Positions 1,512 to 31,208 of a stretch of DNA of 64,000 nucleotides are shown here, piece after piece. Origin of the DNA: Actinomycetes bacterium. Lineage in GTDB: Bacteria; Actinomycetota; Actinomycetes; S36-B12. The notes beneath the pieces were generated by a model. The model worked only from the letters and a program-made list of their open reading frames with translations. It searched no databases and was not told the DNA's origin. Positions within the stretch are counted from its first letter, which is position 1, and every line of letters begins with the position of its first letter. The stretch is from positions 680,257 to 744,256 of the forward strand of contig OZ257128.1 in NCBI GenBank assembly GCA_965278945.1. Direction: 5' to 3'. Made by a program: the position numbers and the translations under genes.

Positions 1512-2363
1512 GTGAGCAAGTCTGTTGCGGTATTCGGCGGGATCTTCTGGCGCGAGCCGGCATTGCGGTCGCAGGCGAAGGAAACGGCCGCAGAGATCGA
1601 GGACCTGGGCTTCTCGGGACTGTGGCTGTCCGCCGGGCACGACCAGGGCCTGCCCACGATCTTCGGCGACCTGCTGGACGCGACGACGTCGATGACCATC
1701 GCGTCCGGAATCGTCAGCATCTGGCACGCGACTCCCGACGAGTCCGCCGCCGCGTTCGCCGACCTGGACAGCAAGCATCCCGGGCGCTTCCTCCTGGGCA
1801 TCGGCACGTCGCACCCGACGTCGACGTCCGCCTACAACAAGCCGTACAGCCACACGATCGGGTACCTCGACGGGCTCGATGCGGCGCAGCCGCCGGTGCC
1901 CGTCGACCGTCGCATCGTCGCCGCGCTCGGCCCGAAGATGCTCAAGCTCGCGGGGGAGCGCTCGATCGGCGCATTCCCGTACTTCGTGCCGGTCGAGCAC
2001 ACCGCGTTCGCGCGCTCGATCCTCGGCGACGGCCCTCTGCTCACCCCCGAGCAGGCGGTGCTCTTCGAGACTGATCCGGTCGTCGCACGTGCCATCGCCC
2101 GCCAGCACATGGAGTACTACCTCGCCCAGCCGAACTACACCCAGGCGCTGCGGCAGTTCGGCTTCGACGACGCGGACTTCGCCAATGGCGGCAGCGACCG
2201 CCTCGCCGACACGATCGTCGCGTGGGGCGACGTCGACGATGTTGTCGCGCGGATCCACGCGCACCACGACGCCGGTGCCGACACGGTCGTCGTCCAGGTG
2301 CTCACCCACGAGGCGAACGACTTCGCCAGCGCCGACTACCGGCTGCTGGCAGGTGCGCTGTGA
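1512..2363 (+). CDS. LLM-class F420-dependent oxidoreductase (MSMEG_4141/TIGR03620-like)
   Basis: IASGIVSIW, RFLLGIGTSH, AALGPKMLKLA, LTPEQAV, GGSDRLAD; GAAGGAG RBS before GTG 1512. Confidence 0.88.
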   Translation: MSKSVAVFGGIFWREPALRSQAKETAAEIEDLGFSGLWLSAGHDQGLPTIFGDLLDATTSMTIASGIVSIWHATPDESAAAFADLDSKHPGRFLLGIGTSHPTSTSAYNKPYSHTIGYLDGLDAAQPPVPVDRRIVAALGPKMLKLAGERSIGAFPYFVPVEHTAFARSILGDGPLLTPEQAVLFETDPVVARAIARQHMEYYLAQPNYTQALRQFGFDDADFANGGSDRLADTIVAWGDVDDVVARIHAHHDAGADTVVVQVLTHEANDFASADYRLLAGAL

Positions 2364-3178
2364 CCGGTCGTCTTGAGGGCAAGGTCGCTCTCATCACCGG
2401 AGCGGCCCGTGGCCAGGGAGCCAATCACGCGCGAGTGCTGGCCGGGGAGGGCGCCGACATCGTCGCCGTCGACATCTGCCACGACATCAGCTCGCTCTAT
2501 CCGCTCGGCACGCGAGCCGAGCTCGACCAGGTCGTCGCGTCCGTGCGCGCGATCGGCCGGGATGCGATCGCGCTCGAGTGCGACCAGCGCAACGACGGTG
2601 CCGTTGCGGAGGTGGTGAAGGCGGCCGAGGCAGAGTTCGGGCGCATCGACATCCTCGTCAACAACGCCGGCGTGCTCGCCGTGTCGGGCATCTACGAGAT
2701 GTCCGTGGAGGAGATGGACCTGCAGATCGACATCAACCTCAAGGGGCCGTTCAACTTCGTGCGCCATGTGTCACCCGGCATGAAGGACCGAGGCTTCGGC
2801 CGCATCGTCAACATCTCCTCCTCCGGCGGCGTCCGTCCCTTCTCGTACCTCTCGCATTACGTCGCGGCCAAGGCCGGCCTGATCATGGCGGGCAAGAGCT
2901 GGGCCCAGGAGCTCGGCGAGTGGGGCATCACGGTCAACGCGATCGCCCCCGGCGTCCTGCGCACCCCGATGAACGACTACGTGCTCGCCATCCTCGACCA
3001 GGACAAGTCCCTCGACGACGGATACGCCGAGTGGATGGAGCGCAACGTCTTCAAGGGCAAGGACAACCCCCTCGAGCTCGACGACATCTCGCGCGCGATC
3101 GTCTACCTCGCCAGCGAGGACGGCCGCGCGGTCACCGGGCAGACGCTCGGCGTCGACTCCGGCTGGACGATCACCTGA
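2360..3178 (+). CDS. Mycofactocin-coupled SDR oxidoreductase (TIGR03971-like)
   Basis: ITGAARGQG, AVDIC plus YPLGT insertion loop, NNAG, YVAAK; GTGA overlap with upstream gene. Confidence 0.85.
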   Translation: MTGRLEGKVALITGAARGQGANHARVLAGEGADIVAVDICHDISSLYPLGTRAELDQVVASVRAIGRDAIALECDQRNDGAVAEVVKAAEAEFGRIDILVNNAGVLAVSGIYEMSVEEMDLQIDINLKGPFNFVRHVSPGMKDRGFGRIVNISSSGGVRPFSYLSHYVAAKAGLIMAGKSWAQELGEWGITVNAIAPGVLRTPMNDYVLAILDQDKSLDDGYAEWMERNVFKGKDNPLELDDISRAIVYLASEDGRAVTGQTLGVDSGWTIT

Positions 3179-3939
3179 TGCCGGAGACCTCGGCTCGGCG
3201 AGTCCTCATCACCGGAGGCGCGATCGGGATCGGGGCGGCGTGCGTTCGCCAGTTCGCGGCACTCGGCGACAGCGTCGTCATCGCGGACGTCCTGGAGCAT
3301 GAGGGCAGCGAGCTCGCTGCGGAGCTGGTCGCGGGCGGAATGGACGTCGAGTTCGTCTCGATGGACATGCGTTCGGCGGCTCAGATCGCCGACGGCGTGG
3401 CGCGGACCGAGCATGACGGCTTCGACGTGGTCGTGGCCAACGCCGGGATCGTGCGACTCGTCCCGTTCACGAGTCTGAGCGACGCCCAATGGGACGAGAC
3501 CATGGAGGTCAATCTCAAGGGCGCGATGCAGACCTTCCGAGCGGCTCTTCCCGCGCTGATCGCCAAGGGCGGGGGCAGCCTCGTCGCGATGACGTCGATC
3601 GCCGGCCACACCTACGGGTGGCAGGAGCATGTCCAGTACTCCACGGCGAAGGCGGGACTCATCGGACTGGTCCGATCGCTCGCCGTCGAGTTCGGCCCGA
3701 GCAACGTCCGCGCGAATCTGATCGCTCCCGGGTACATCAGGACGGCCCAGTCGCTCGACGCGGTGAACTCCGCCGGCGCGGAACTCCTGGAAGCGAACGC
3801 GTCCACGGTGCCACTCGGTCGGATCGGGGAGCCCGACGACGTTGCCGGTGTTGCCGTGTTCTTGGCCTCGGACGCCGCGCGCTACGTCAGTGGCCAGACA
3901 ATCGTTGTCGACGGAGGCCTGCTCGTCCGCCTCGGGTGA
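3178..3939 (+). CDS. SDR family NAD(P)-dependent oxidoreductase
   Basis: TGGAIGIG, ANAG, YSTAK, VDGG; TGATG overlap. Confidence 0.9.
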   Translation: MPETSARRVLITGGAIGIGAACVRQFAALGDSVVIADVLEHEGSELAAELVAGGMDVEFVSMDMRSAAQIADGVARTEHDGFDVVVANAGIVRLVPFTSLSDAQWDETMEVNLKGAMQTFRAALPALIAKGGGSLVAMTSIAGHTYGWQEHVQYSTAKAGLIGLVRSLAVEFGPSNVRANLIAPGYIRTAQSLDAVNSAGAELLEANASTVPLGRIGEPDDVAGVAVFLASDAARYVSGQTIVVDGGLLVRLG

Positions 3940-3949
3940 TGGTAGTCGT

Positions 3950-4684
3950 CTAGCTGATGACGTAGCCGCCGTCGACGACGAGCGACTCGCCGAAGATTGA
4001 CGCGGAGTCCGACGAGAGCAGGAAGCCGATCGCCGCAGCGATCTCCTCGGGCTGGATCAAGCGGCCGTGCAACTGCGTGGCGATGATCGCGTCGCGCTCG
4101 CGCTCGCCCTCGGGATTGTCGAAGAAGCGCCGGAGCATCGCGGTCTCGGTCGGGCCCGGGCACACGCTGTTCGCGCGGATGCCGTCCGCGCCGAAGTCGA
4201 GCGAGATCGTCTTCATCAGCATGATGAGCGCGGCCTTCGACGCGCAGTAGGCGGCGTTGTCGCGTCCCGCCGCGATGCCGAGCTGCGATGCGACGGCCAC
4301 GATCGATCCGCCGCCGTTGGCGCGCAGGTGCGGGATCGCCTCGCGCACCACGTAGAAGACACCGGACAAGTTGACGCCCAGGATCTTGTCCCAGTCGGCG
4401 AGCGACACTGTCTCGACGGTCCCGCGCGGGGCGATGCCAGCAGCGCAGACGACCCCCGACAGTCCGCCCAGGACGCCGACCGCCTCGGTCACCGCGCCCG
4501 ACATGGCGGCGGAGTCGCTGACGTCGGCGACGATCGTGTGGGTGCCGTCCGGCACGCCGTCGGGGAACCCCATGTCGACGGCCACGACGCTCGCGCCCTG
4601 GCCGCGCAGGCGCGCGACGGTCGCCTGGCCGATACCCGACCCGCCACCGGTGACGAACACTCGCTCAGAATGGTCAGAAGCCAT
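3950..4684 (-). CDS. SDR family oxidoreductase
   Basis: TGGGSGIG, YCASK, NSVCPG, VDGGY. Confidence 0.9.
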   Translation of the reverse strand: MASDHSERVFVTGGGSGIGQATVARLRGQGASVVAVDMGFPDGVPDGTHTIVADVSDSAAMSGAVTEAVGVLGGLSGVVCAAGIAPRGTVETVSLADWDKILGVNLSGVFYVVREAIPHLRANGGGSIVAVASQLGIAAGRDNAAYCASKAALIMLMKTISLDFGADGIRANSVCPGPTETAMLRRFFDNPEGERERDAIIATQLHGRLIQPEEIAAAIGFLLSSDSASIFGESLVVDGGYVIS

Positions 4685-4805
4685 GGATGGATCCCTTCGA
4701 TCGTTGCCGTTCTGAGACGTCCGAATCGGACCTGGGAGCCATTCTGAGCCGTCTCAAGGCTGGTTTATTTCGGGCGGGTAACAAAGTGGTAACTGGTAAC
4801 TGCGA

Positions 4806-4821
4806 ACTGTTGACAGTTGCT
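4806..4821 (+). promoter_or_regulatory. Operator/-35 ACTGTTGACAGTTGCT, copy 2
   Basis: Identical to 1447-1462; preceded by heptads GGTAACT GGTAACT GCGAACT. Confidence 0.75.
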
Positions 4822-4867
4822 TAGCGTATGCCCAGACTTCACCAAAAGCCCCCCGAAAGGAGCCCAA

Positions 4868-5200
4868 ATGCCGGGTACGTACCCCGCGTTGGACCGTACC
4901 GCCGCCATCGATTTCGGCGACGACGGACCGCTTGGCCCCTTCTCTGCGGAGCTGACCTTCCATTCCGCAGACCAGACCGTGGACTTCCGCGTTACCCGAG
5001 GCTCGCTGGTCGGCATCGCCGGCACCGTCCCGTTTACCGCCCAGGAAGTGGCCGACGGCATCTGGCTGGTGACATGGCAGGAGCCCGGCAACTTGTCGGT
5101 CACCCAGGTCCACAACTTCAACAGCGGCCTCCTGCTGACCGTGAACGTCAACGAGGCCTACGAGCTCGCCCACATCAACGGAACGATCCACCTCACCTAA
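4868..5200 (+). CDS. MoaF-like / phenolic-acid-decarboxylase-fold small protein
   Basis: EVADGIWLVTWQE...VTQVHNF pattern; GAAAGGAG RBS. Confidence 0.7.
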   Translation: MPGTYPALDRTAAIDFGDDGPLGPFSAELTFHSADQTVDFRVTRGSLVGIAGTVPFTAQEVADGIWLVTWQEPGNLSVTQVHNFNSGLLLTVNVNEAYELAHINGTIHLT

Positions 5201-5247
5201 GCCGTCGTCGTTCCATCTGCGCTAGTTGCGCCACAAGGAGATATTTA

Positions 5248-6126
5248 GTGAACACGCTGCGATCGTTGATCGCCTCGGCAGAAGACAGAGGCAGGGCCGT
5301 CGTCCTTCCGGGCGCGTTTGACGCGCTCAGCGCCCGCCTCATCGAAGCTGCCGGGTTCGACGCCATCTACCTGACGGGCGCTGGATTCGCCAATTCCAGT
5401 CTGGGCGTTCCGGACATCGGGCTCGTCACAGCAACCGAGATGCGCGACCACGTGGCAAAGATCGTCGATGTCGTGGACATCCCGCTCGTCGTCGATGCCG
5501 ACACCGGCTACGGCAACGCGATCAACATGGGCCGCACCGTCCGCCAGTTCGAGCGCGCCGGCGCATCCGCGCTGCAGATCGAGGACCAGCTCTTCCCCAA
5601 GAAGTGCGGTCACTTCGAGGGCAAGGGCGTCATCTCCGCGAAGGAGATGGTGCAGAAGGTGCACGCGGCAGTCGACGCTCGCAGGTCCGAGGACCTGCTC
5701 ATCATCGCCCGAACCGACGCTCGGGCCGTGTCGACCCTGGAGGAGGCGCTCGAGCGTGCCGAGCTCTATCGCGAGGCCGGCGCTGACGTCCTGTTCGTCG
5801 AGGCGCCCACGTCGGTCGAGGAGATGCAGATCATCGGCCAGCGCCTGGACGGCCCGCTCGTCGCGAACATGGTCGAGGGCGGCAAGACACCCCTGCTCAG
5901 CGCGGGCGAGCTCGCCGATCTCGGCTTCTCCGTCGTCCTGTTCGCGAATGCGACCCTTCGCGTCGCGCATCGCGCGATCAATGGCCTGCTGACCGAACTG
6001 GCGCAGACCGGTACCACGAAGGCGATGCTCGACCAGATGGCCGGTTGGAACGAGCGCCAGGATGCCGTCGGCAAGTCGCACTACGACGCCCTGGAGCGCA
6101 AGTACTCGACCGAGGGCCAGTCATGA
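5248..6126 (+). CDS. Isocitrate lyase/PEP mutase family C-C lyase (methylisocitrate/2,3-dimethylmalate lyase-like)
   Basis: DADTGYG, IEDQ, KKCGH, IIARTDA, NMVEGGKTP; AAGGAG RBS. Confidence 0.92.
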   Translation: MNTLRSLIASAEDRGRAVVLPGAFDALSARLIEAAGFDAIYLTGAGFANSSLGVPDIGLVTATEMRDHVAKIVDVVDIPLVVDADTGYGNAINMGRTVRQFERAGASALQIEDQLFPKKCGHFEGKGVISAKEMVQKVHAAVDARRSEDLLIIARTDARAVSTLEEALERAELYREAGADVLFVEAPTSVEEMQIIGQRLDGPLVANMVEGGKTPLLSAGELADLGFSVVLFANATLRVAHRAINGLLTELAQTGTTKAMLDQMAGWNERQDAVGKSHYDALERKYSTEGQS

Positions 6127-7529
6127 CGGCATCGGACCTGCGCATCGCCAACGCCGACGTCGTCCTGCCGACCGGCGTGACGAAGGCCGACATCATCGTG
6201 CACGACGGACGTACCAGCGAGATCGTGCAGCCGGGGACGCCCGTGGAGACCACGTCGACACTCGACGCGACCGGACTGCATGTCTTCCCCGGCGTCGTCG
6301 ACCCGCACGTTCACCTCGGCCCGAACATCACGTACCCGCAGTCACCCGAGGATGCCGTTCCCGAGTCGCAGTCCGCGGCCGCCGGCGGCGTGACGACGAT
6401 GCTCGCCTACCTGATGTCGGCCCAGCCGTACCACGAGGTCTACCCGACCGCCCTCGAGACGATGTCGAATCACTCCTTCACCGACTTCGGGTTCCACTTC
6501 TGTGTGGTCACCCGCGACCAGATCGAGGCCATCCCGGACTACGTGAGCGACCTTGGCGTCAGCTCCTACAAGTTCTTCATGAACTTCCGCGGCGAAGAGG
6601 GCGCCTACCTCGGCCTGCCCGGAAACGACGACGGCTTCATGTTCGACCTGCTTGAGGCGGCGCAGAAGAACGGCGCCATGCTCGATCCGCACGCGGAGAA
6701 CATCGAGCTCGTGTGGCGACTTCGCGCAGCCGGCGTCAAGGAGGGCAAGACCCCCCTCGACAGCTGGAATATCAACCGTCCCGACTATGTCGAGGCCTCG
6801 GCACTCAACAGCCTCGCCTTCCTGGCCCGGGTCACCGGCGCGAGCGTCTACGCCGTGCACACCACGAGTGCGATCGCCCTCGACGTCCTTCGCCAGAGCC
6901 GCACCGGCTACGACAATGTCTTCGTCGAGACGTGCCCCCACTACCTGACCCTCAACACCGGCTCCCCGTGCGGCACCTACGGCAAGGTCAACCCGCCGCT
7001 GCGCACCGAGGCCGATGCCGACGCGCTCTGGCAGGCGGTGGCCGACGGTTTCGTCGACACGATCGGCTCCGATCACGTGCCGCGTCACCGCTCCTTCAAG
7101 GAGAAGGACATCTGGACCGCCTCAGCAGGCTTCCCCGGCATGGAGAACCTCCTGCCGACGATGCTCTCGAGCGGCTTCCATGAGCGCGGTCTTCCGTTGA
7201 CGCGCATCGCCGAGGTCACCGCCTCGCGCCCCGCGCAGCTGTTCGGCATGTACCCCAAGAAGGGCGTCATCCAGGTCGGCTCGGATGCCGACTTCGCGAT
7301 CGTCGACCTCAACGAGACCTACGAGGTCGCCGCGGCCGATCAGTTCTCCGCCTCGGAGTACACCCCGTGGGAGGGCTGGCAGATGACGGGCCGGGTCCGG
7401 CACACGATCCTGCGTGGCCAGACCGTCTTCTCGGTCGGCCGGGACTTCGGCACGCCGACCGGCGAGTTCATCGCCCGCCGCTACAGCGGCGAAGCCGCCT
7501 TGGACGCGGCACGGGCGGTGACCGCATGA
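6123..7529 (+). CDS. Cyclic amidohydrolase (dihydroorotase/allantoinase/hydantoinase/imidase family)
   Basis: PGVVDPHVH, GGVTT, YKFF, HAEN, ETCPHYL, KVNPPLR, GSDH. Confidence 0.92.
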   Translation: MTASDLRIANADVVLPTGVTKADIIVHDGRTSEIVQPGTPVETTSTLDATGLHVFPGVVDPHVHLGPNITYPQSPEDAVPESQSAAAGGVTTMLAYLMSAQPYHEVYPTALETMSNHSFTDFGFHFCVVTRDQIEAIPDYVSDLGVSSYKFFMNFRGEEGAYLGLPGNDDGFMFDLLEAAQKNGAMLDPHAENIELVWRLRAAGVKEGKTPLDSWNINRPDYVEASALNSLAFLARVTGASVYAVHTTSAIALDVLRQSRTGYDNVFVETCPHYLTLNTGSPCGTYGKVNPPLRTEADADALWQAVADGFVDTIGSDHVPRHRSFKEKDIWTASAGFPGMENLLPTMLSSGFHERGLPLTRIAEVTASRPAQLFGMYPKKGVIQVGSDADFAIVDLNETYEVAAADQFSASEYTPWEGWQMTGRVRHTILRGQTVFSVGRDFGTPTGEFIARRYSGEAALDAARAVTA

Positions 7530-8215
7530 CCAATCCCTGGGACGACGTGATCAGCGCCGAGGATCTCGCGCGCTACGACAAGGCCGGCTTCGGCCGTCCG
7601 TCGGGCATCGGCTCCAAGCCCGCGCTGCTGATCATCGACGTGCAGTACCGCACGCTCGGCGACACGCCCAAGCCCTTCGACGAGGCGATCAAGGACTACT
7701 CCACCGCGGTCGGCCAGGCCGGCTGGGACGCCGTCGATCAGATCGAGAAGCTGCTCACGACGTTCCGCGCGGCCGGTCACCCGGTCCTGTACCCGCACGT
7801 CGCGCCGAAGCTCGCCTACGACGCCGGCACGCTCGGCGCGAAGGTGCCGTCGATCATGTCGATCCCGGAGCAGGGCTACAAGATCCCGGACCGGCTCGCG
7901 CCGCGGCCTGACGACATCATGCTGCCGAAGAAGCACCCGAGCGCGTTCTTCGGAACCCCGCTCGTGAGCTACCTGATCGACCTCGGCGTCGACACCCTGA
8001 TCGTCACGGGCTGCAGCACCAGCGGCTGCGTCCGCGGCACCGTCGTCGACGGCTTCGCCTACAACTTCAAGGCGATCGTCCCCCACGACGCGGTGTACGA
8101 CCGAAGCGACCTCGTCCACAAGGTGAACCTGTTCGACATGGGCCAGAAGTACGCCGACGTCATGAGCACCGACGACGTCATCGCGAAGCTCGCCTCGCTC
8201 GAGGGGAGTGGCTGA
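7526..8215 (+). CDS. Isochorismatase-family cysteine amidase (maleamate/N-carbamoylsarcosine amidohydrolase-like)
   Basis: Asp-Lys-Cys triad: LIIDVQ, KKHPSAFFGT, STSGCVRGT; NLFDMGQKYADV. Confidence 0.9.
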   Translation: MTNPWDDVISAEDLARYDKAGFGRPSGIGSKPALLIIDVQYRTLGDTPKPFDEAIKDYSTAVGQAGWDAVDQIEKLLTTFRAAGHPVLYPHVAPKLAYDAGTLGAKVPSIMSIPEQGYKIPDRLAPRPDDIMLPKKHPSAFFGTPLVSYLIDLGVDTLIVTGCSTSGCVRGTVVDGFAYNFKAIVPHDAVYDRSDLVHKVNLFDMGQKYADVMSTDDVIAKLASLEGSG

Positions 8216-8216
8216 C

Positions 8217-8585
8217 ATGTACTCGATCAACTGGAGCCAGGTTCCCGAGACGGCCCACCTGCCGAACAATTTCCGCAACGCCGTGGCCGGCAAGGAGATG
8301 GGCGTCAACCGTATTCGCTGGGTGCACCCGACCTCGCTGCCCGCGCACATTCACGAGGACGCCGAGAAGGCCATCGTCGTGATCCAGGGCGCGATCTCGT
8401 TCATGATCAACGGCGAGGAGCTCACGCTGAGCGAGGGCGATGTCGCCATCGTGCCGCGCAATGCCGTCCACTCGGGCCACAGCATCGAGGGCGAGGCGGT
8501 CTTCATCGAGGTCTTCGCGCCCCTGCGCATCGAGAATCTCGCCGCGTTCCTCGGCGATACGTCCGTCACGATTGTGGAGGCCTGA
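8217..8585 (+). CDS. Cupin domain protein
   Basis: HIHEDAE...G and GDVAIVPRNAVH cupin motifs. Confidence 0.88.
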   Translation: MYSINWSQVPETAHLPNNFRNAVAGKEMGVNRIRWVHPTSLPAHIHEDAEKAIVVIQGAISFMINGEELTLSEGDVAIVPRNAVHSGHSIEGEAVFIEVFAPLRIENLAAFLGDTSVTIVEA

Positions 8586-8586
8586 C

Positions 8587-13329: not shown

Positions 13330-13371
13330 TCCTGGTTTGTCATCTGAATATCGCCACGAAAGGTCGAAACA

Positions 13372-14532: not shown

Positions 14533-16020
<1,488 letters not shown>

Positions 16021-18560: not shown

Positions 18561-18592
18561 CTCACCCCACCCACTGCTTCGGAGGTTTCGTC

Positions 18593-23474: not shown

Positions 23475-23499
23475 TCACCACGACAAGAAGGGCGAGCAG

Positions 23500-23925: not shown

Positions 23926-25355
23926 CGGCGACGCGTGCGAAAGTCCGACACCCAGTCGGGCATGCGGATCGACGGAGTGAGCGGTACGCGCGTGCGCGCT
24001 CGCACGCAACTGGTCAGCACTCCGGTTCCGTACGCGGCATCGTCGACAAGGCGCAGCGCCGCGTAGCGAGCCGGGTCGAGCGGTGGTCGTCTCGTCGCGT
24101 ACTCCCACGCGATCGGAGCGAGCATGCAGGCGGAAAGCGAGCGCGCGATGCGCGAGCGCGGGGCGAGGACGAGGGCTGCTGCGCCGACCGGCCACCATTC
24201 GCGGCGAAGCAGGTGCCCGATGCCGGCGGCGTCCGCGATGATGCCCTGGCCGACGATCCTCGCGGCGAGCAGCTCGGGGCTGTCCAGCGCGCGCAACTGG
24301 CGGGACAAGGCAACCGCCGCACCCGTAGCGACCACCGCGCCGGCTCGCGGCCGGCCGGTCGCGAGCAGGGCGAGCGCGGCAATGTTCCATGCCGACACGC
24401 GCGCGGGAGTGAGCTTGTCGGGATGGCGTACCGACAGCGCGGCAGCCGACGTTCCGTACTCGTAGCGGCGGGTGAGCCACGCGCGCGGACGTGCGCGAGT
24501 GGCGTGCTCGACCACGACGGTCGGGTCGTACAGCACGTGCCAGCCCTCGTCGGTGAGGCGCCAGACGAGATCCACGTCCTCGCCGAGTCGAAGGTCCTCG
24601 TCGAATCCCGTGCCGAGCGCGTTGCGCCGGACGATCAGGGCGGCTGTCGGCACGAAGCCAAGCCGCGAGCCCGGGCGCACGAGCTCGGGGAACAGGCCCA
24701 TGTCGAGCGAGGAGCGAGTCGCCTCGTAGCGGTCGATCACGCTGCGGCCCAAGGGGTTCGCGCGCACGCGTGGCGCGACGGCAGCGACGGCGGGGTCGGC
24801 GAAGTGGTGCAGCATCGAGGCGGGCCAGCCGGGCGGAGCGATGCAGTCCGAGTCCAAGAAGGCGACGAACTCGCTTTGCGATGCGGCGACTCCGGTGTTG
24901 CGTGCCGCTGCCGGACCCGTGTTCTGCGCATGCGCGACCACCGTCACCGCATGCCGATCGCCAACAGCACGCATGGCATGGGGATTGACGGAGCCGTCGT
25001 CGACGACGATCACGTCGGGCACCCCTGGCAGCGACGACAGCGTCCGGTCGAGGCTGTCCGGTCGGTCCATCGCGGGAATGACGACGCAGGCGGTGCCGGA
25101 ACCAAGGTCAGGACCCTGCACCACGATCGCGAATCCACGATCGACGAGCATCCGGAAGATGGCGAGAGTCTGCGGGTCCGACGCCGAGACCCCTGTGCTG
25201 CCGCTGCCCAGGAGGTTCACGACGACGATGCGCGCCGCACCCGTCATCCGGCTGATCCGCCACGGCGAGCCGCCGATCAGCGCGGAGGCGTTCGCCCACG
25301 ACCGCACGTGCGGTGCAAGCCGAACCACCGTTCCCGCGGGCAGCGAGCGATCCAC
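23922..25355 (-). CDS. mftF: Mycofactocin glycosyltransferase
   Basis: LIGGSP N-terminus, GT2 motifs VVDDGS, GPAAARN, FLDSD, SSLDMG, GEDVD; mft context. Confidence 0.92.
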   Translation of the reverse strand: MDRSLPAGTVVRLAPHVRSWANASALIGGSPWRISRMTGAARIVVVNLLGSGSTGVSASDPQTLAIFRMLVDRGFAIVVQGPDLGSGTACVVIPAMDRPDSLDRTLSSLPGVPDVIVVDDGSVNPHAMRAVGDRHAVTVVAHAQNTGPAAARNTGVAASQSEFVAFLDSDCIAPPGWPASMLHHFADPAVAAVAPRVRANPLGRSVIDRYEATRSSLDMGLFPELVRPGSRLGFVPTAALIVRRNALGTGFDEDLRLGEDVDLVWRLTDEGWHVLYDPTVVVEHATRARPRAWLTRRYEYGTSAAALSVRHPDKLTPARVSAWNIAALALLATGRPRAGAVVATGAAVALSRQLRALDSPELLAARIVGQGIIADAAGIGHLLRREWWPVGAAALVLAPRSRIARSLSACMLAPIAWEYATRRPPLDPARYAALRLVDDAAYGTGVLTSCVRARTRVPLTPSIRMPDWVSDFRTRRR

Positions 25356-25949
25356 TCAGCTGTCCAGGATCGAGCGCAGCGCCGAGCCGGTTCCCACCAG
25401 CAATTGCTCGAGTGTCTGCGCGTCGCTCTCCAGCCACTGCTCGTACGCCGATAGCGCCAAGGCCAGCGCGACGTGCCCCGCCAGTCGCGGGACGAGGTCA
25501 TCGGCCGGCACCGCAAGGCGGGTGGCGACATACGAGGAGATCACCGCGCGCCACTGCTCGTATCGCAGTGCGGAGTGGGCCTGGAGCGCGGGCGTGCGCA
25601 GGATGAGCGCCATCCGCTGGCGATGCTGGGGGAGCGTGGCCGGGTCGAAGCGGTTGAAGTCCACGACCGCACGATTGATGGCCTCGAACAGCGGCACGTC
25701 AGGGGGCGTCTGGTCGAGGGTGTGCCGCAGGCCCTCGAGGCTGGCATCGAACTGGCCCCAGGGAATGTCGTTCTTCGATGGGAAGTAGCGGAACAGGGTT
25801 CGGCGGCCCACGCCCAGGACCGTCGCGATGTCGTCGAGCGTGGTCTCGTCGAAGCCCTGGTTCGCGAACAGCTCGAACGAGACGGCTTCGATTTCGGCAT
25901 GGCTGGTCACCGGGGGACGTCCGGCGGCGGGCCGGTCTGCCGTGCTCAT
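25356..25949 (-). CDS. mftR: Mycofactocin system TetR regulator
   Basis: RRTLFRYFPSKNDIPWGQFD, HRQRMALILRTPALQAHS; divergent from mftA. Confidence 0.93.
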   Translation of the reverse strand: MSTADRPAAGRPPVTSHAEIEAVSFELFANQGFDETTLDDIATVLGVGRRTLFRYFPSKNDIPWGQFDASLEGLRHTLDQTPPDVPLFEAINRAVVDFNRFDPATLPQHRQRMALILRTPALQAHSALRYEQWRAVISSYVATRLAVPADDLVPRLAGHVALALALSAYEQWLESDAQTLEQLLVGTGSALRSILDS

Positions 25950-26004
25950 GACCGGATGAACCTAGCAGGCATTCACACAGTATTAACACGAATGTATTGC
26001 TTTT

Positions 26005-26019
26005 TGGCGCACGGTGCCA
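26005..26019 (+). promoter_or_regulatory. Putative MftR operator within the mftA promoter
   Basis: TGGCGCACGGTGCCA (GGC-N7-GCC palindrome) between TTGCTT (25997-26002) and TACTGT (26021-26026). Confidence 0.6.
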
Positions 26020-26062
26020 TTACTGTCCGATCAGTTGCAATCCACTCAGCGAAGGGATCGAC

Positions 26063-26158
26063 ATGAGCATCGAGGCACCCCAGACCGAAACCCAGGACCT
26101 GCAGGTCGAGACCTTGATCGAGGACGTCTCGATCGACGGTATGTGCGGCGTCTACTAG
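26063..26158 (+). CDS. mftA: Mycofactocin precursor peptide (absent from ORF track)
   Basis: MSIEAPQTETQDLQVETLIEDVSIDGMCGVY*, with the diagnostic IDGMCGVY C-terminus; GAAGGGA RBS. Confidence 0.98.
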   Translation: MSIEAPQTETQDLQVETLIEDVSIDGMCGVY

Positions 26159-26170
26159 GCCTGCATCAGC

Positions 26171-26452
26171 ATGACGATGCTCGACGAGCCCTGGCAGTTG
26201 TCCCCACGCGTGGAACTGCGCCCGGAGCCGTTCGGCGCACTCGCCTACAACTTCAGCACCAGGCGCCTGACCTTCCTCAAGCGACCTGAGCTCGTAACCG
26301 TCGTCGCGGGCCTTGCCGCCGGTGCCGACGTGCGCGAGGCGCTGCAGGCAGCAGGCGTGCCGCCCGAGCAATGGCCTTCGTACGTGAAGGCCCTCGAGTC
26401 GCTCGCAGAAGCGGGCACGATCCAACCGCGAACACTGGAGGCTGCATCGTGA
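26171..26452 (+). CDS. mftB: Mycofactocin RRE chaperone
   Basis: LRPEPFGALAYNFSTRRLTFLK. Confidence 0.95.
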   Translation: MTMLDEPWQLSPRVELRPEPFGALAYNFSTRRLTFLKRPELVTVVAGLAAGADVREALQAAGVPPEQWPSYVKALESLAEAGTIQPRTLEAAS

Positions 26453-27699
26453 CCATCCTCGACGAGCGCATCACCACCGCTCCCGCAGAACGCCCCACCG
26501 GCGGCTCGCTGCTCGACCAGTTCGAGCTCGGCCTTAACGCACCCATCTGCCTGACGTGGGAGCTGACGTACGCATGCAACCTCGCATGCGTCCATTGCCT
26601 GTCGTCCTCGGGCAAGCGCGACCCGCGCGAGCTCAGCACGAAGCAGGCCGAGGCCGTCATCGATGAGTTGCAGCGGATGCAGGTGTTCTACATCAACATC
26701 GGCGGCGGCGAGCCCACGATCCGCCCCGACTTCTGGCATCTGCTCGACTATGCCGTGTCGCACAACGTCGGCGTGAAGTTCTCGACGAACGGCGTGCGCA
26801 TCACCCCCGAGCGCGCGAGCTTCCTCGCGTCGACCGACTACGTCGACGTGCAGATCTCGCTCGACGGCGCGACCGCCGAGGTCAATGACCGCGTGCGCGG
26901 CACGGGCTCCTACGACATGGCGATCCGCGCGCTGGAGAACCTGTCTGCTGCTGGTTTCAAGGACGCGAAGATCTCGGTTGTCGTCACGCGCGAGAACGTC
27001 GGCCAGCTCGACGAGTTCAAGGCGCTGGCCGATCGGCACGGCGCCACCCTGCGACTGACCCGGCTTCGCCCGTCTGGTCGCGGTGCCGACGTGTGGGACG
27101 ACCTGCACCCCACGGCCGCGCAGCAGCGCGACCTGTACAACTGGCTGATGAAGGCCGGCGAGAACGTCCTCACCGGTGACTCCTTCTTCCACCTCGCCGG
27201 CTTCGGCGAGCCGCTGCCCGGCCTCAACCTGTGCGGTGCCGGCCGCGTCGTGTGTCTCATCGATCCCATCGGCGATGTCTACGCGTGCCCCTTCGCCATC
27301 CATGACAACTTCCTCGCCGGCAACTTGCTCAACCCCGGTGGATTCAAGGAGGTCTGGCAGAACTCGGAGCTCTTCGCCGACCTGCGCTCCCCGCAGACGT
27401 CGGGCGCATGCACGAAGTGCCAGCACTTCGACTCGTGCCGCGGTGGCTGCATGGCCGCGAAGTTCTTCACCGGACTTCCGCTCGACGGTCCCGATCCCGA
27501 GTGCGTCCAGGGCTACAGCGAGGACGCGCTGCTGCAGGTCGGACGCACCGTCCCCGCCGCGAGCCAGGACCATTCGAAGACGTCTAAGCGCAAGCAGGAG
27601 CCGGTCCTGGTCCAGCTCGGGATGCTCAGCCCCGCGACGCCTCCGGTGCATGGCTGCGCCGAGAGCCCCCTCGCGGGCTTCAACCCCGCCGTCATCTAA
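26449..27699 (+). CDS. mftC: Mycofactocin radical SAM/SPASM maturase
   Basis: APICLTWELTYACNLACVHC; SPASM cysteines; CRGGCMAAKFFTGLP. Confidence 0.97.
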   Translation: MTILDERITTAPAERPTGGSLLDQFELGLNAPICLTWELTYACNLACVHCLSSSGKRDPRELSTKQAEAVIDELQRMQVFYINIGGGEPTIRPDFWHLLDYAVSHNVGVKFSTNGVRITPERASFLASTDYVDVQISLDGATAEVNDRVRGTGSYDMAIRALENLSAAGFKDAKISVVVTRENVGQLDEFKALADRHGATLRLTRLRPSGRGADVWDDLHPTAAQQRDLYNWLMKAGENVLTGDSFFHLAGFGEPLPGLNLCGAGRVVCLIDPIGDVYACPFAIHDNFLAGNLLNPGGFKEVWQNSELFADLRSPQTSGACTKCQHFDSCRGGCMAAKFFTGLPLDGPDPECVQGYSEDALLQVGRTVPAASQDHSKTSKRKQEPVLVQLGMLSPATPPVHGCAESPLAGFNPAVI

Positions 27700-27724
27700 G
27701 TTCCGATCCTTCGAGGGGTTCACA

Positions 27725-28909
27725 GTGGCAAATCCGTGGTTCGAGTCCGTCGCCGAGGCGCAGCGTCGTGCGAAGAAGCGTCTTCCGTCGTCGGTCTACA
27801 GCGCACTGCTCGCCGGTAACGAGAAGGGCACGTCGTACGACGACAACATCACCGCGTTCTCCAAGATCGAGCTGGCCCCGCACGTGGCCGGACTGCACGC
27901 CGAGCGCGACCTAGCGACAACGTTCATGGGCCAGCCCATCTCCCTGCCGGTCGTGACCTCGCCGACCGGCGTGCAGGCCGTTCATCCCGACGGCGAGATC
28001 GCCATCGCGCGCGCGACTGCCGCTCGCGGCACCGCGATGGGACTCGGCTGCTTCGGCAGCAAGCCTCTCGCCGACGTGATCGCGGCGAATCCGCAGACCT
28101 TCTTCCAGATGTACTGGATGGGCACCCGCGACCAGATGCTCGAGCGCCTCGCGTATGCGAAGGACCTCGGCGCGAAGGGCATCATCTTGACCCTTGACTG
28201 GTCGTTCTCCTATGGACGTGACTGGGGCAGCCCGGTCATCCCGGAGAAGATCGACTTCAAGACGATGGTGCAGTTCGCCCCGCAGGTGATCGCGAAGCCG
28301 AAGTGGCTCGCGTCGTTCGCGCGCGGTGGCGGCATCCCCGACCTCGGCACCCCGAACCTGAAGAACGAGGCCGGGGAGACTCCCACCTTCTTCGGTGCGT
28401 ACTACGAGTGGATGCAGACCCCGCCGTGCACATGGGAGGACCTGGCCTGGCTGCGCTCGCAGTGGGACGGGCCGTTCATGCTCAAGGGCATCTGCCGCGT
28501 CGACGACGCGAAGCGCACGGTCGATGCCGGCTTCTCGACACTGTCGGTCTCCAACCACGGCGGAAACAACATCGACTCCACGCCCGCCCCGATCCGGGTG
28601 CTCCCCAGCATCGTCGAGGCCGTCGGCCAGGACATCGAGATCGTCATGGACGGCGGCATCCGCCGCGGCAGCGACGTCGTGAAGGCGCTTGCGCTCGGGG
28701 CCAAGGCCGTCATGATCGGACGCCCGTACCTGTGGGCGCTCGCGGCGAACGGCCAGGGCGGGGTCGAGAACGTCCTGGACATCCTGCGCAGCGGAATCGA
28801 CTCCACCGTCTACGCGCTGGGACACAAGTCGATCCACGACCTGTCTCCCGCGGACGTCATCGTCCCCGAAGGATTCACCAGAACCCTCGGTGCCGTCGGG
28901 AGCAAGTAG
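27725..28909 (+). CDS. mftD: Pre-mycofactocin synthase (FMN-dependent deaminase)
   Basis: WFESVAEAQRRAKKRLP, SPTGVQAVHPDGE, SNHGGNN, DGGIRRG. Confidence 0.96.
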   Translation: MANPWFESVAEAQRRAKKRLPSSVYSALLAGNEKGTSYDDNITAFSKIELAPHVAGLHAERDLATTFMGQPISLPVVTSPTGVQAVHPDGEIAIARATAARGTAMGLGCFGSKPLADVIAANPQTFFQMYWMGTRDQMLERLAYAKDLGAKGIILTLDWSFSYGRDWGSPVIPEKIDFKTMVQFAPQVIAKPKWLASFARGGGIPDLGTPNLKNEAGETPTFFGAYYEWMQTPPCTWEDLAWLRSQWDGPFMLKGICRVDDAKRTVDAGFSTLSVSNHGGNNIDSTPAPIRVLPSIVEAVGQDIEIVMDGGIRRGSDVVKALALGAKAVMIGRPYLWALAANGQGGVENVLDILRSGIDSTVYALGHKSIHDLSPADVIVPEGFTRTLGAVGSK

Positions 28910-29640
28910 TGGCGACGGTTCGGCACCTGTCGGCTATGACGTGGGACACCGTTCCCGCGAGGCCACTCGTTCTCGTGCCGATCGGCTCGACCGAGCAGCA
29001 CGGACCGCACCTGCCGTTCGAGACAGACACCCTCATCGCCACGGCTGCGGCCGAGCGCATCGCCGTCGTCCTCCAGGGGGACGGGATTGACGTGCTCCTC
29101 GCGCCGGCCATCTCCTACGGAGCGAGCGGTGAGCACCAGGAGTTCCCCGGCACCGTCTCGGTCGGTCATGAGGCGCTGAGGATGCAGATCGTCGAGCTCG
29201 TCCGCTCCCTGTCCACCTGGGCCGGGCGCATCGTGTTCGTCAACGGGCACGGCGGCAACGTGACCACGCTGTCGTCGGCGATCGCGCAGATGCGCGGCGA
29301 GCATCACGACGTCGCCTGGCTCGCCTGCATCTTCGAGTCCGATGCCGACGCGCACGCCGGATCGACGGAGACCTCGGTGATGCTCCACCTGGCGCCCGAG
29401 CGGGTCGACATGGCGAGCGCGGCTCCCGGCCAGCTCGCACCGCTCGCGGAGATCCTGCCGCTGCTGATGTCGTCCGGTGTCCGAGCCGCGTCGCCGTCCG
29501 GCGTGCTGGGCGACCCGACCAGCGCGACCGCAGAACTCGGCGAGACCTTGATGAGCCAACTCGTCGGCCACGGCGTTGCGCTGGTCACGAGCGCGACGGT
29601 CGATGACCGTGGTCGTCTCGTCGAACTGGCATCGCGATGA
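28909..29640 (+). CDS. mftE: Mycofactocin peptidase (creatininase family)
   Basis: GSTEQHGPHLP, GASGEH, NGHGGN, DAHAG, GVLGDP. Confidence 0.94.
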   Translation: MATVRHLSAMTWDTVPARPLVLVPIGSTEQHGPHLPFETDTLIATAAAERIAVVLQGDGIDVLLAPAISYGASGEHQEFPGTVSVGHEALRMQIVELVRSLSTWAGRIVFVNGHGGNVTTLSSAIAQMRGEHHDVAWLACIFESDADAHAGSTETSVMLHLAPERVDMASAAPGQLAPLAEILPLLMSSGVRAASPSGVLGDPTSATAELGETLMSQLVGHGVALVTSATVDDRGRLVELASR

Positions 29641-30434
29641 CCCGGGTGGCCCTGGTCACGGGCGCGGCGCGCGGTATCGGGCGCGCGACCGTTGATGTCC
29701 TCGTCCAGCAGGGCTATCGCGTAGTCGCCGTCGACTCGTGCGCGGGCACGGGCACCGGCCGAGGTGACGGAGTTGACTACGCCCTCGCCACACCGGACCA
29801 ACTGCTGAGCCTGGAAGCCGAGTACCCCGATGTCGTCCGCACGCAGGTTGTCGACGTGCGCGACGCCGACGCACTTGCGGCCGCAGCAGTCCTCGCGGTC
29901 GACGTGTTCGGCAGGCTCGATGCTGCGGTTGCGGCCGCAGCGGTCATCGTGGGTGGAGAGCCGTTGTGGGCCACACCCGAGTCGCACCTGCGCACGCTGC
30001 TCGACGTCGATGTTGTCGGCGTCTGGAACACGGCGTCTGCGGTCGTGCCCGTCATGCTGAGCGGTCCGGATCCGCAAGGCTGCCGCTTCGTTGCGGTGGC
30101 CTCCGCCGCGGGTGCTCGCGGACTGTTCCACCTCGCCGGATACAACGCGGCCAAGCACGCCGTGGTCGGGCTGGTCAAGGGCCTGGCCGCCGACCTCATC
30201 GGCACAGGCGTCACCGCCGTTGCCGTATCGCCAGGGTCCACTGACACCGACATGCTTCGGGCCACCGCCGATCTGTACGACCTCGAGCATGTCGACGAGT
30301 TCGCGTCATCGCAGTTGGTCCGTCGGCTCCTGCGTCCCGAGGAGCTCGCGGCGACGATCGCGTTCTGCTGCTCGCGCGAAGGAGCGGTTCTCAACGGCTC
30401 GGTCGTCGATGCCTCGGGTGGGTTCACGGCATGA
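29637..30434 (+). CDS. Mycofactocin-coupled SDR (TIGR04504-like)
   Basis: TGAARGIG, VDSC...YALAT insertion, YNAAK; ATGA overlap with mftE. Confidence 0.87.
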   Translation: MTRVALVTGAARGIGRATVDVLVQQGYRVVAVDSCAGTGTGRGDGVDYALATPDQLLSLEAEYPDVVRTQVVDVRDADALAAAAVLAVDVFGRLDAAVAAAAVIVGGEPLWATPESHLRTLLDVDVVGVWNTASAVVPVMLSGPDPQGCRFVAVASAAGARGLFHLAGYNAAKHAVVGLVKGLAADLIGTGVTAVAVSPGSTDTDMLRATADLYDLEHVDEFASSQLVRRLLRPEELAATIAFCCSREGAVLNGSVVDASGGFTA

Positions 30435-30446
30435 AGGCAGAGCTCA

Positions 30447-31208
30447 GTGCCTAGCCTCGACGGCGAGATCGCCTACGTCACCGGTGCCGGATCGGGGATC
30501 GGTCGTGCCACCGCGCTCCAGTTGTCGCGCGAGGGCGCAAGCGTCGTGCTCCTGGGCCGGACGTCCGCTGGTCTTATCGAGACTCAGCGCGAGTGCTCTG
30601 GTCCTGCCGAGATCGTGGTACTCGAACTGTCTGATGCACTGGCCGTCGAGCGGCTCCTGCCGTCGGTTGTCAGCCGCGTCGGCGCTCCGAGCATCGTCGT
30701 CCACTCCGCGGGAGAGACCGTCGTCGGATCCCTCGACTCGTTGACCGAGGAGCAGTGGGACCGGCAGATGAACTCCAACCTCAAGGCGATCTTCCTCGTG
30801 AACAAGGTGCTGTGGCCGGCCATGGTCGACGGCGGCGGAAGCATCGTCCTCATCGCGTCGCGCGCATCATTCGTGGGCTTTCCCAAGAACGCGGCTTACG
30901 TGGCGAGCAAGGGTGCCGTGCTGTCGATGACCAAGGCCATGGCCCTCGACGGAGCCAGGCACGGGATCCGGGTCAACGCCGTGTGCCCTGGCCTGATCCT
31001 GACGCCGAACCTGCAGAACTACTTCGACAGCCAGGCCGATCCGGAGCAGGCGAAGGCGACTGCGTCGGCGACCCTTCCCGTGGGTCGCATGGGCCAGCCC
31101 GAGGAGGTGGCGCACGCGGTCGCGTTCCTCGCGTCACCCGACGCGAGCTTCATCACCGGTGCGTCACTGGTCGTCGACGGCGGACTGCTCGCTCGCGCGC
31201 CATCCTGA
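30447..31208 (+). CDS. SDR family oxidoreductase (paralogue of 18593-19348)
   Basis: TGAGSGIG, YVASK, NAVCPG. Confidence 0.9.
   Translation: MPSLDGEIAYVTGAGSGIGRATALQLSREGASVVLLGRTSAGLIETQRECSGPAEIVVLELSDALAVERLLPSVVSRVGAPSIVVHSAGETVVGSLDSLTEEQWDRQMNSNLKAIFLVNKVLWPAMVDGGGSIVLIASRASFVGFPKNAAYVASKGAVLSMTKAMALDGARHGIRVNAVCPGLILTPNLQNYFDSQADPEQAKATASATLPVGRMGQPEEVAHAVAFLASPDASFITGASLVVDGGLLARAPS

Follow-up and report, generated by a model that had tools for sequence, protein, structure and literature searches.

Why should the genes for making a redox cofactor stand end to end with a long run of catabolic genes, and do the two parts belong to one pathway? The question is raised by the window studied here, i.e., the whole 64,000-nucleotide stretch C1:680257-744256 of an Actinomycetes genome (G000; 3.55 Mb in one contig, ~67% GC), in which 23 redox, hydrolase and transport genes (g01-g23, 1458-23925) are followed by a complete mftR/mftA-F locus for mycofactocin biosynthesis, the cassette as a whole covering 1458-31208. 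The best explanation of what we observe, and in our judgment a fairly probable one, is that ~1447-31208 forms a transferable cassette built in three layers, i.e., a core regulon, an upper module and a mycofactocin (mft) module. The block of catabolic genes is one regulon, with a gene order conserved across Actinomycetes and Thermoleophilia and a common operator, and its upper module is seen only in genomes with mft genes. For the substrate class, the best inference is an alcohol-bearing N-heterocycle that would be oxidized to an acid, opened as a cyclic imide or ureide, and end as a tricarboxylate.

Gene content of the catabolic block

Genes were mapped by GC3-guided open reading frames (ORFs) with start refinement and hidden Markov model (HMM) scans; gene starts are approximate. 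An earlier note on this stretch had described about 23 genes abutting a full mft locus, with seven short-chain dehydrogenases/reductases (SDRs) in total, an Old Yellow Enzyme (OYE), an aldehyde dehydrogenase, a flavoprotein, a block of amidohydrolase, amidase and PrpD genes, a GntR regulator and a binding protein for import. The scans bear this out, with 23 genes g01-g23 followed by mftR/mftA-F above cut-offs, and with the OYE, the aldehyde dehydrogenase, an FAD flavoprotein, two MmgE/PrpD proteins, the GntR regulator and an ABC importer with its binding protein all present; the seven SDRs of the cassette are g02, g03, g04, g18, g19, g31 and g32. The genes g05-g23 all point in the same direction, with intergenic gaps of at most 65 nt, and g05 is the first gene of the block also in the sister genome (G020), in G179 and in loci of Microbacteriaceae. 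The genes from g05 to g22 are as follows, with scores given against the cut-off of the respective model.

g05, 4868-5200, + strand: MoaF-like small protein (Pfam PF22036, 61.2 against 27)
g06, 5248-6126, + strand: C-C lyase of the PrpB/isocitrate-lyase superfamily (prpB TIGR02317, 312.2 against 354.4, below cut-off)
g07, 6123-7529, + strand: cyclic amidohydrolase of hydantoinase/allantoinase/imidase type (HMM scans and conserved metal ligands)
g08, ~7547-8215, + strand: isochorismatase-family Cys amidohydrolase (Pfam Isochorismatase, 102 against 27)
g09, 8217-8585, + strand: cupin (Cupin_2, 43.8 against 27.2)
g10, 8587-9450, + strand: metallo-beta-lactamase-fold hydrolase (Lactamase_B, 46.2 against 22.7; PDB matches weak only)
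g11-g13, 9516-13329, + strand: sugar-type ABC importer, i.e., Peripla_BP_4 binding protein, double ATPase and permease
g14, 13372-14484, + strand: N,N-dimethyl-4-nitrosoaniline (NDMA)-dependent (nicotinoprotein) Zn alcohol dehydrogenase (TIGR03989, 482.3 against 440)
g15, 14533-16020, + strand: aldehyde dehydrogenase (best match StyD-type, 588 against 850, below cut-off)
g16, 16029-16706, + strand: GntR/FadR-type regulator, the sole GntR of the cassette
g17, 16715-17791, + strand: OYE, N-ethylmaleimide-reductase-like (NF007899, 313.7 against 403, below cut-off)
g18 and g19, 17835-19348, + strand: two SDRs, kept in long-form loci
g20, 19361-20731, + strand: soluble FAD enzyme of fumarate-reductase/urocanate-reductase/TcuA type
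g21 and g22, 20728-23474, + strand: two MmgE/PrpD-family proteins (Pfam N- and C-terminal domains)

A common operator defines one regulon

Orthologues of g07 are plentiful at 50-93% identity, and a pattern scan of 185,579 species genomes yielded 66 loci; the window proteins were compared with related loci by tblastn. Several of the related genomes are fragmented metagenome-assembled genomes (MAGs), and G050/L023, on which no claim rests, is treated as one unit in the counts of loci and genomes.

A 15-mer palindromic operator, ACTGTTGACAGTTGC, is present in exactly two copies in the 3.55-Mb genome, both of them in the cassette; the chance expectation of its 14-nt palindrome in this genome is 0.0015.

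Operator copy 1, ACTGTTGACAGTTGC, 1447..1461: upstream of g01, containing a TTGACA -35-like hexamer
Operator copy 2, ACTGTTGACAGTTGC, 4806..4820: at the head of the g05-g23 string, also present in G020

The 12-nt core of the operator, ACTGTTGACAGT, is found with at most one mismatch at 49 sites (35 of them exact) in the 58 related loci L020-L077 (1.005 Mb), as against 0.67 sites on average, and never more than 3, in 30 shuffles. The operator occurs in 37 of the 58 loci, and an extended consensus, aACTGTTGACAGTtGnCAG, was built from 50 sites. All sites in the related loci head an operon: one copy lies before [MFS]-GntR-g06-g07-g08(-g20), where MFS denotes a major facilitator superfamily transporter, and a second copy precedes g09-g15 in Dietzia (L035/L038) and Aeromicrobium (L066), or g20-g22 in Nocardia, Pseudonocardia, Prauserella and Thermocrispum. 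Because the common operator heads their operons, the NDMA-type alcohol dehydrogenase (ADH) and the importer are placed in the same regulon as the ring-opening enzymes.

GntR genes go with the operator in most of the related loci, and g16 is a candidate for the regulator that binds it. Since the site overlaps the TTGACA -35-like hexamer, a repressor predicted to sit there would block the promoter. A sigma-70 scan gave no promoter-like site at 1300-5000 or 23300-31500, and a terminator scan gave only two weak candidates, where shuffled sequence gave 1.0 on average, both scans being poorly suited to a high-GC actinobacterium. A motif ACTGT...CAGTTGC between mftR and mftA resembles the operator loosely, with different spacing, and was rejected as a site.

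Core and long form of the block

The core is made up of g06-g07-g08, which a GntR gene and g20 usually accompany, as g21-g22 often do. Its carriers include Streptomyces, Micromonospora, Amycolatopsis, Nocardia and Solirubrobacteraceae, and, with identities of 41-50%, MAGs of Bacilli, Alphaproteobacteria and Thermodesulfobacteriota. The operon of this short form opens with an MFS metabolite/H+ symporter that resembles ProP, TcuC and ShiA but scores below cut-offs (TIGR00883, 386-395 against 443; TcuC, 251-261 against 445). The long form, i.e., the core together with g09-g15 and g17-g19, was found in Kineosporia, Dietzia, Pseudonocardia, Nocardia, Aeromicrobium, Patulibacter, Solirubrobacteraceae and some MAGs, and the order g06-g22 is retained across Actinomycetes and Thermoleophilia. 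All 13 long-form loci whose contig allows the gene to be seen carry an orthologue of g14 (56-76% identity), and no upper module with an ordinary ADH in its place was seen. In an evenly drawn class sample, a g07 orthologue was detected in 3 of 301 genomes (G000, G179 and G158, the match coordinates in G158 being identical to those of G076).

Outside the conserved block fall the SDR trio g02-g04 and two further genes: g01, for an F420-dependent enzyme of the luciferase-like monooxygenase (LLM) class, was not found in the clusters of other lineages, and g23, for a SnoaL-like protein, is shared with G020 only, besides one 39% match in L042. The earlier proposal that the genes act on one compound class is thus supported for g05-g22, on the grounds of operator and gene order, and is not supported for the F420-dependent LLM enzyme and the SnoaL-like protein, which are lineage-specific.

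The mycofactocin module and its clients

The second part of the cassette is the only mft locus of the genome: a single mftC scores above cut-off, and the next-best matches reach 37 bits. Its genes are the following.

mftF, 23922-25355, - strand: glycosyltransferase (TIGR03965, 398.7 against 280)
mftR, 25356-25949, - strand: TetR regulator (TIGR03968, 261.7 against 224.9)
mftA, 26063-26158, + strand: 31 residues, C-terminus IDGMCGVY (TIGR03969, 49.9 against 25)
mftB, 26171-26452, + strand (TIGR03967, 106 against 33)
mftC, within 26063-29640, + strand (TIGR03962, 654.3 against 265)
mftD, within 26063-29640, + strand (TIGR03966, 663.7 against 470.85)
mftE, 28909-29640, + strand (TIGR03964, 294.5 against 172)
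g31, 29637-30434, + strand: mycofactocin-coupled SDR, its start overlapping the mftE stop (NF040491, 368.3 against 265; TIGR04504, 368.1 against 250)

The MftA peptide carries the conserved C-terminal GVY of MftA precursors. Catabolic block and mft genes meet, as had been noticed before, in the CTAG at 23922-23925, which is common to the stop codon of the SnoaL gene g23 (TAG, 23923-25) and that of mftF on the other strand (CTA, 23922-24). The gene g31 is assigned to the mft module because it adjoins mftE also in G018, G019, G020 and G179.

Most of the recognizable mycofactocin clients of the genome sit in this 30 kb. Two of 18 matches to TIGR03989 score above cut-off (g14 and one at C1:3425806), one of 54 to TIGR04504 (g31) and none of 58 to TIGR03971, for which g02 is the top scorer; the cassette therefore holds two of the three genome proteins above client cut-offs and the top TIGR03971-like SDR. 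The scores agree with the earlier designation of the ADH at 13372 as a nicotinoprotein, of the SDR at 29637 as mycofactocin-type, and of the LLM enzyme as F420-type (TIGR03620, 328.8 against 219.8, with F420 synthesis encoded in the genome). They do not lend support to the SDR at 2360 (g02) as a client, since with 265.4 against 300 for TIGR03971 it is a near-member and not a member; it is also absent from G020.

The second TIGR03989 ADH, at G000:C1:3424203-3426909 (497 bits), is 42% identical to g14, and an ADH-like fragment broken by a TAG lies upstream of it. An operator-like site with two mismatches at C1:3424543, ~1.3 kb upstream of this second ADH, was discarded as compatible with chance; the genome has four such two-mismatch sites, and no paralogues of the block lie near this one.

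Linkage of the upper module with the mft genes

The gene mftC was sought in 50 genomes behind the related loci, seven short or duplicate loci being left out, and was found in 25. It is present in all 13 long-form genomes, as compared with 10 of 34 core-only genomes. Of three genomes in which the contig ends within the long form, two have mftC, and the other, a 1.4-Mb MAG, carries mftD and mftF on the locus itself. The core is thus independent of mycofactocin, because it occurs in mft-less genomes. The coupling to mycofactocin put forward earlier is supported for the module with the ADH, a form found only in mft genomes, and does not extend to the core of hydrolases, lyase and PrpD proteins. 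That homologous blocks should mostly occur in genomes without mft genes had been named as a sign against coupling; such genomes make up half of the total (25 of 50 without mftC), and it is the core that they concern.

Furthermore, the mft genes directly adjoin the long form in five arrangements from four to five lineages of two classes, and this adjacency is independent evidence of linkage. In G000 and G020, the block is followed by the SnoaL gene, mftF(-) mftR(-) and mftA-E(+). In G179, a member of the same family but another genus (GC 54%), the mft genes lie on the opposite side of the block, i.e., mftE-B(-), mftR(+), mftF(+), two operators around a PIG3-type reductase, and then g05-g22. Aeromicrobium has mftR(-), mftB-F (mftA is also present), a GMC oxidoreductase, the operator, a GntR gene and g06-g15, and in Patulibacter g06-g15, SDRs, an F420-type LLM enzyme and mftA-F occupy one strand throughout. 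In the Microbacteriaceae lineage UBA963, mftD...mftF and a PIG3-type reductase are followed by a TIGR03989 ADH (502.9 against 440), which is divergent from the operator, and g05-g10. No adjacency was seen in the 10 core-only genomes with mftC, nine of which have the two loci on separate contigs and one (G070) 3.8 Mb apart on one contig.

The accessory reductase between mft genes and block varies by lineage. It is an F420-type LLM enzyme in Patulibacter (L086 9042-10565) and a PIG3-type quinone oxidoreductase in G179 (L091 4237-5271) and UBA963 (L022 6355-7287), that of G179 standing between two operator sites. The GMC oxidoreductase of Aeromicrobium (L066 6674-8248), between mftF and the operator, matches choline dehydrogenase best (360.6 against 605); to judge from its match to the MftG model, which is below cut-off (252 against 387.45), it may be a divergent MftG.

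The cassette moved as one unit

Only 5 of 24 further members of the genus carry mftC, and among 33 genus genomes a g07 orthologue is found only in G000 and G020, the remaining matches (at most 34% identity) being paralogues. The mft-positive members G018, G019, G023 and G011 have the same mftF-mftR / mftA... core, and no block was found in them within contig reach (in G018, none within ~35 kb upstream).

The segment common to G000 and G020 comprises 1524-2359 and 4768-31027 of the window, at 83-86% nucleotide identity, and agrees with the borders of 1512 and 31208 drawn before. The flanks of the cassette in G000 map to C1:1096585 (left) and C1:1092021 (right) of G020, i.e., 4.5 kb apart, and the cassette copy of G020, at ~3.345-3.372 Mb, is bordered by genes that only 5.4 kb separate in G000 (2.127-2.133 Mb). 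Because the chromosomal sites differ between the two sister genomes, the block and the mft genes are concluded to have moved as one ~30-kb unit. The scanned flank ORFs of G000 and G020 contain no integrase or mobility gene; tRNAs and border repeats were not searched. Between the two parts of the common segment, the SDR trio g02-g04 forms a 2.4-kb insert (2360-4767) that is present in G000 only and absent from G020. The genes at the variable left end, together with those at the right ends of the block and of the common segment, are listed here.

g01, 1458-2363, + strand: F420-dependent LLM-class oxidoreductase (TIGR03620, 328.8 against 219.8), 90% identical to the G020 copy
g02, 2360-3178, + strand: SDR near mycofactocin-coupled subfamily 1, below cut-off (TIGR03971, 265.4 against 300; also NF040490, 233.7 against 385, and TIGR04504, 169.1 against 250)
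g03, 3178-3939, + strand: FabG-like generic SDR, every match below cut-off
g04, 3950-4684, - strand: generic SDR
g23, 23500-23925, + strand: SnoaL-like protein
g32, 30447-31208, + strand: generic SDR at the right edge of the segment common with G020

In G000, g01-g03 have their own operator copy; g01 of G020 is without one. Protein identity between the two copies is mosaic, with 93-97% for g06-g10, g14, g16-g19 and mftC/D, as against 73% for g11, 70% for g22, 76% for g23, 77% for mftE and 80% for mftF; the importer g11-g13 as a whole ranges from 72 to 83%. This pattern suggests recombination, or a faster, relaxed or diversifying change in the binding protein g11.

To the right of the G020 cassette (L006 2650-14900) lies a 12-kb segment of 57-60% GC in a genome of 67% GC. 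Among its products are a C-5 cytosine methylase and an HNH nuclease. Three of its ORFs measure 738, 473 and 1878 aa, the largest with TrwB/HerA/AAA-like ATPase matches, and two large ORFs are without Pfam match. Neither methylase, nuclease nor ATPase is an integrase, and the segment is probably a restriction- or defense-type island.

Proposed pathway

Conservation of active-site residues assigns a type of reaction to the two hydrolases. In g07, H58, H60, K146, H186, H242 and D313 are invariant in 13 orthologues, and we take this set (HxH, a carboxylated K, H, H and D) to be the binuclear-metal ligands of cyclic amidohydrolases; g07 reaches no equivalog cut-off, and no subfamily was assigned. 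For g08, at least 95% of 55 orthologue matches keep the D of IDvQ, the K of PKxxPS and the C of TSGC, presumably as the Asp-Lys-Cys triad of isochorismatase-like Cys amidohydrolases. Because this triad is kept, g08 is predicted to be an amide hydrolase and not a vinyl-ether hydrolase. The gene previously called an amidase is hence present, with the correction that it belongs to the isochorismatase-family Cys hydrolases; its relatives in the PDB are N-carbamoylsarcosine amidohydrolase (the best, 1.5e-30), RutB and isochorismatase-family hydrolases.

For g06, the PDB matches are petal death protein, 2-methylisocitrate lyase and 2,3-dimethylmalate lyase; for g20, flavocytochrome c fumarate reductase (3.5e-57) and urocanate reductase (1.5e-41), TIGR01813 (flavocytochrome c) being the closest model (269 against 285.45) and TcuA NF006130 scoring 162.9 against 369; and for g21/g22, IRG1/cis-aconitate decarboxylase and IDS epimerase, with at most 35 bits for the PrpD model. 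By these comparisons, g20, g21/g22, g06 and the short-form MFS transporter resemble families that handle tricarboxylates (TcuA, cis-aconitate decarboxylase/PrpD, methylisocitrate lyase and TcuC, respectively).

From sequence comparison we infer the chemistry and order of the steps, the binding of g16 to the operator and the use of mycofactocin by g14 in vivo. The first layer would be a GntR-type regulon core (g06, g07, g08, g20 and g21/g22) for an N-heterocyclic compound, which would operate independently of mycofactocin: g07 would open a carboxylated cyclic imide (or ureide), g08 would deamidate the product and release the nitrogen, g20 and g21/g22 would desaturate or hydrate the resulting tricarboxylate, and g06 would cleave the tricarboxylate-type acid to central metabolites. 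The second layer, under the same operator, would be the upper module of g09, g10, g11-g13, g14, g15, g17 and g18/g19. Here, g11-g13 would import an alcohol-bearing precursor, g14 would oxidize its CH2OH to CHO, with NAD tightly held and the electrons passed to mycofactocin, and g15 would take CHO to COOH, while the OYE g17 and the SDRs g18/g19 would reduce and re-oxidize the ring to the imide that is the substrate of the core. The third layer, mftF-mftR / mftA-E with g31, would be the sole mycofactocin biosynthesis module of the genome, and we propose that it is linked to the upper module because the latter would be useless without mycofactocin.

Pyridoxine catabolism, which the SDR, metallo-beta-lactamase-type lactonase and ADH/aldehyde dehydrogenase genes bring to mind, was set aside because models of B6 transporters score far below cut-off (282 against 670; 43 against 400) and the ring oxygenases are missing; it is retained as a candidate for screening only. 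A route for isonicotinate/citrazinate by way of a dioxopiperidine-carboxylate, which older literature reportedly describes, was given no weight as evidence.

Weighing of the alternatives

Several observations count against the three-layer cassette and its pathway. Most enzymes of the block are below equivalog cut-offs, so that their names give no substrate; no block gene accounts for ring hydroxylation; and the best relative of g08 among solved structures, an N-carbamoyl amidase, would suit a ureide no less than an imide. The correlation between long form and mft genes is partly circular, because TIGR03989 was constructed from co-occurrence with mft, as described by Haft (2011, PMC3023750). 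In nine carriers of the long form for which the 10-kb flanks are complete (Kineosporia, two Dietzia, three Pseudonocardia, two Nocardia and one Solirubrobacteraceae) the mft genes are not adjacent. The co-regulation of block and mft genes that the earlier note had looked to left no sign: the stretch between mftR and mftA does not contain the operator, and the mft genes have their own regulator, MftR. Nor is the locus self-contained, as had been supposed, since the genome has no MftG (best TIGR03970 match 31.8 bits against 387.45) and encodes F420 synthesis 1.3 Mb from the cassette (CofH/FbiC, 467.8 against 374.1, at C1:2036729); MftG was also not found in G020 at E<=1e-40. According to Graca (2025, PMC11778925), mftG is present in 234 of 311 mftC genomes, and G000 therefore belongs to a minority in which re-oxidation of the cofactor is unexplained.

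Some of these points would equally be expected if the mft genes and the block were independent neighbors, the mft genes hitch-hiking and the ADH either being served by mycofactocin made anywhere in the genome or having no need of it. Such a reading would agree with the lack of mftC in 24 of 34 core-only genomes, with the separate regulators and the missing operator at the mft promoter, with the position of mft elsewhere in the nine long-form genomes, and with the low-GC methylase/HNH nuclease/ATPase segment next to the G020 cassette, which marks a variable region. It is nevertheless unlikely in view of the five arrangements of adjacency over two classes, when by our estimate the chance of two loci falling within 15 kb of each other in a 3.5-Mb genome would be ~1% per lineage, of the joint movement of both parts between G000 and G020, and of the TIGR03989 enzyme under the operator of the block. 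That the co-directional run of 23 genes should hold several unrelated pathways, with no single compound class, is a very improbable view. It could draw on the left end, with g01 and g23 lineage-specific and g02-g04 in G000 only, and on the accessory reductases, which are F420-dependent LLM enzymes in G000, G020 and Patulibacter and PIG3-type in G179 and UBA963, but it is difficult to reconcile with an order of g06-g22 held across Actinomycetes and Thermoleophilia, with a six-gene core kept even in Bacilli and Thermodesulfobacteriota MAGs, and with one operator at the head of the core, g09-g15 and g20-g22 operons.

The identity of the ring is a separate matter. With a ureide of hydantoin, dihydropyrimidine or dihydroorotate type, g07 would have hydantoinase activity and g08 N-carbamoyl amidase activity, yielding CO2, NH3 and an amino acid; we regard this as a serious contender, albeit a doubtful one. 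The best models and structures for g07 are indeed allantoinase, D-hydantoinase and dihydropyrimidinase, and g08 has N-carbamoylsarcosine amidohydrolase as its best solved relative and matches RutB too. The ureide is weakened because the conserved core is without an enzyme for the amine product, i.e., without aminotransferase, deaminase or ammonia-lyase, and because the other four families of core and transport proteins suggest a tricarboxylate free of nitrogen. The likeness of g07 to hydantoinases is also compatible with an imide, as hydantoinase and imidase are grouped in one family of cyclic amidohydrolases, and a glutaric acid monoamide has been produced with D-hydantoinases, as described in PMC4437985 and PMC13098106.

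Relation to known systems

A close parallel in mechanism to the proposed imide route is the nicotinate route of Aspergillus nidulans, for which experiments described in PMC9304392 show HxnT (OYE), HxnW (SDR), HxnM (cyclic imidase) and HxnN (amidase) to act in this order, the SDR yielding a piperidine-2,6-dione and the amidase releasing the nitrogen; according to the same source, such steps were previously known solely from that pathway. In the cassette, they correspond to the OYE, the SDRs, the cyclic amidohydrolase and the amidase, a likeness at the level of mechanism only. In contrast to the deacetylase-like HxnM and the amidase-signature HxnN, its putative imidase is a binuclear amidohydrolase and its amidase is of isochorismatase type; it is without ring hydroxylases and adds an ADH/aldehyde dehydrogenase pair, an ABC importer and a tricarboxylate-type lower pathway.

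The locus could be a bacterial, mycofactocin-dependent counterpart of this fungal piperidine-dione route, for an alcohol-substituted N-heterocycle, in which the reduced cofactor, in a lineage without MftG, is re-oxidized inside the portable pathway, an idea that is quite unlikely to be right. The OYE g17, g20 or the accessory F420/PIG3-type enzyme would then re-oxidize the mycofactocin reduced by g14, and the cofactor would be an internal electron shuttle between two steps of the route, not a feeder of respiration. With such a closed redox loop, it would be understandable that the pathway takes the genes for cofactor biosynthesis along when it moves.

Canonical mft loci of mycobacteria, as described in PMC3023750 and PMC11778925, comprise mftR, mftA-F and mftG with nicotinoprotein clients nearby, and clients of this kind near mft are also described from Thermomicrobium roseum and a Haloterrigena plasmid (Haft 2011, PMC3023750). 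The cassette resembles these loci in its complete set of mftA-F and mftR, in the TIGR04504-type SDR after mftE and in the TIGR03989 ADH nearby. It differs in the place of mftF, which does not follow mftE but adjoins mftR on the other strand, in the lack of MftG, and in that the mft genes are fused to, and move with, a 19-gene catabolic regulon.

In mycobacteria, mycofactocin has been tied to alcohol metabolism, chiefly that of ethanol, in the work described in PMC6529628 and PMC11778925. The presumed transfer of electrons from a nicotinoprotein ADH to mycofactocin is common to both cases, but g14, rather than being a general ADH, is part of a dedicated multi-step regulon that also encodes an importer and the enzymes of ring opening. 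Few other physiological roles of mycofactocin are known to us. A conserved regulon with a recognizable operator and a mycofactocin-type dehydrogenase step makes further roles testable, and culturable carriers outside the mycobacteria are at hand in Aeromicrobium sp. Root472D3, Dietzia, Kineosporia babensis and Pseudonocardia sulfidoxydans.

The lower pathway invites comparison with the methylcitrate cycle and tricarballylate utilization, to whose PrpD, PrpB, TcuA and TcuC the proteins g21/g22, g06, g20 and the short-form MFS transporter, respectively, are homologous. All four are below equivalog cut-offs, however, there is no citrate-synthase-type or CoA-ligase gene, and the genes are coupled to amidohydrolases. 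With hydantoin and creatinine utilization, the cassette shares the succession of a cyclic amidohydrolase and an isochorismatase-family amidase, but not the handling of an amino-acid product; its regulators are different and it continues into a lower pathway of lyase, PrpD and FAD proteins.

That clients occur near mft is already known, and the mft genes of the cassette are standard apart from the placement of mftF. For the cluster and the operator, nothing was found in the literature searched, a scope outside of which most subscription journals lie. Within it, the regulon with its operator, the division into an mft-independent core and an mft-restricted upper module, the repeated fusion with mft, and the movement of a single cassette in a lineage without MftG appear to be new. 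Cofactor biosynthesis and client pathway are here inherited as a single 30-kb unit, and the locus directs attention to mft-positive genomes without MftG, in which regeneration of the cofactor is unexplained.

Surroundings of the cassette in the window

The flanks of the cassette in the window (1-1415 and 31216-33130) are unrelated to it and encode an HxlR regulator, a glyoxalase-like protein (PF06983), a GNAT protein, a siderophore-interacting FAD protein and a trypsin-like peptidase. At 33-64 kb, ORF calling alone gives frames that include 1169, 830 and 826 aa. A ~60-nt GC-rich hairpin repeat resembling repetitive extragenic palindromic (REP) elements, with a predicted fold of -42.9 kcal/mol, is located at 38066-38140 and has 67 short-BLAST matches in its own genome and ~35 in G020.

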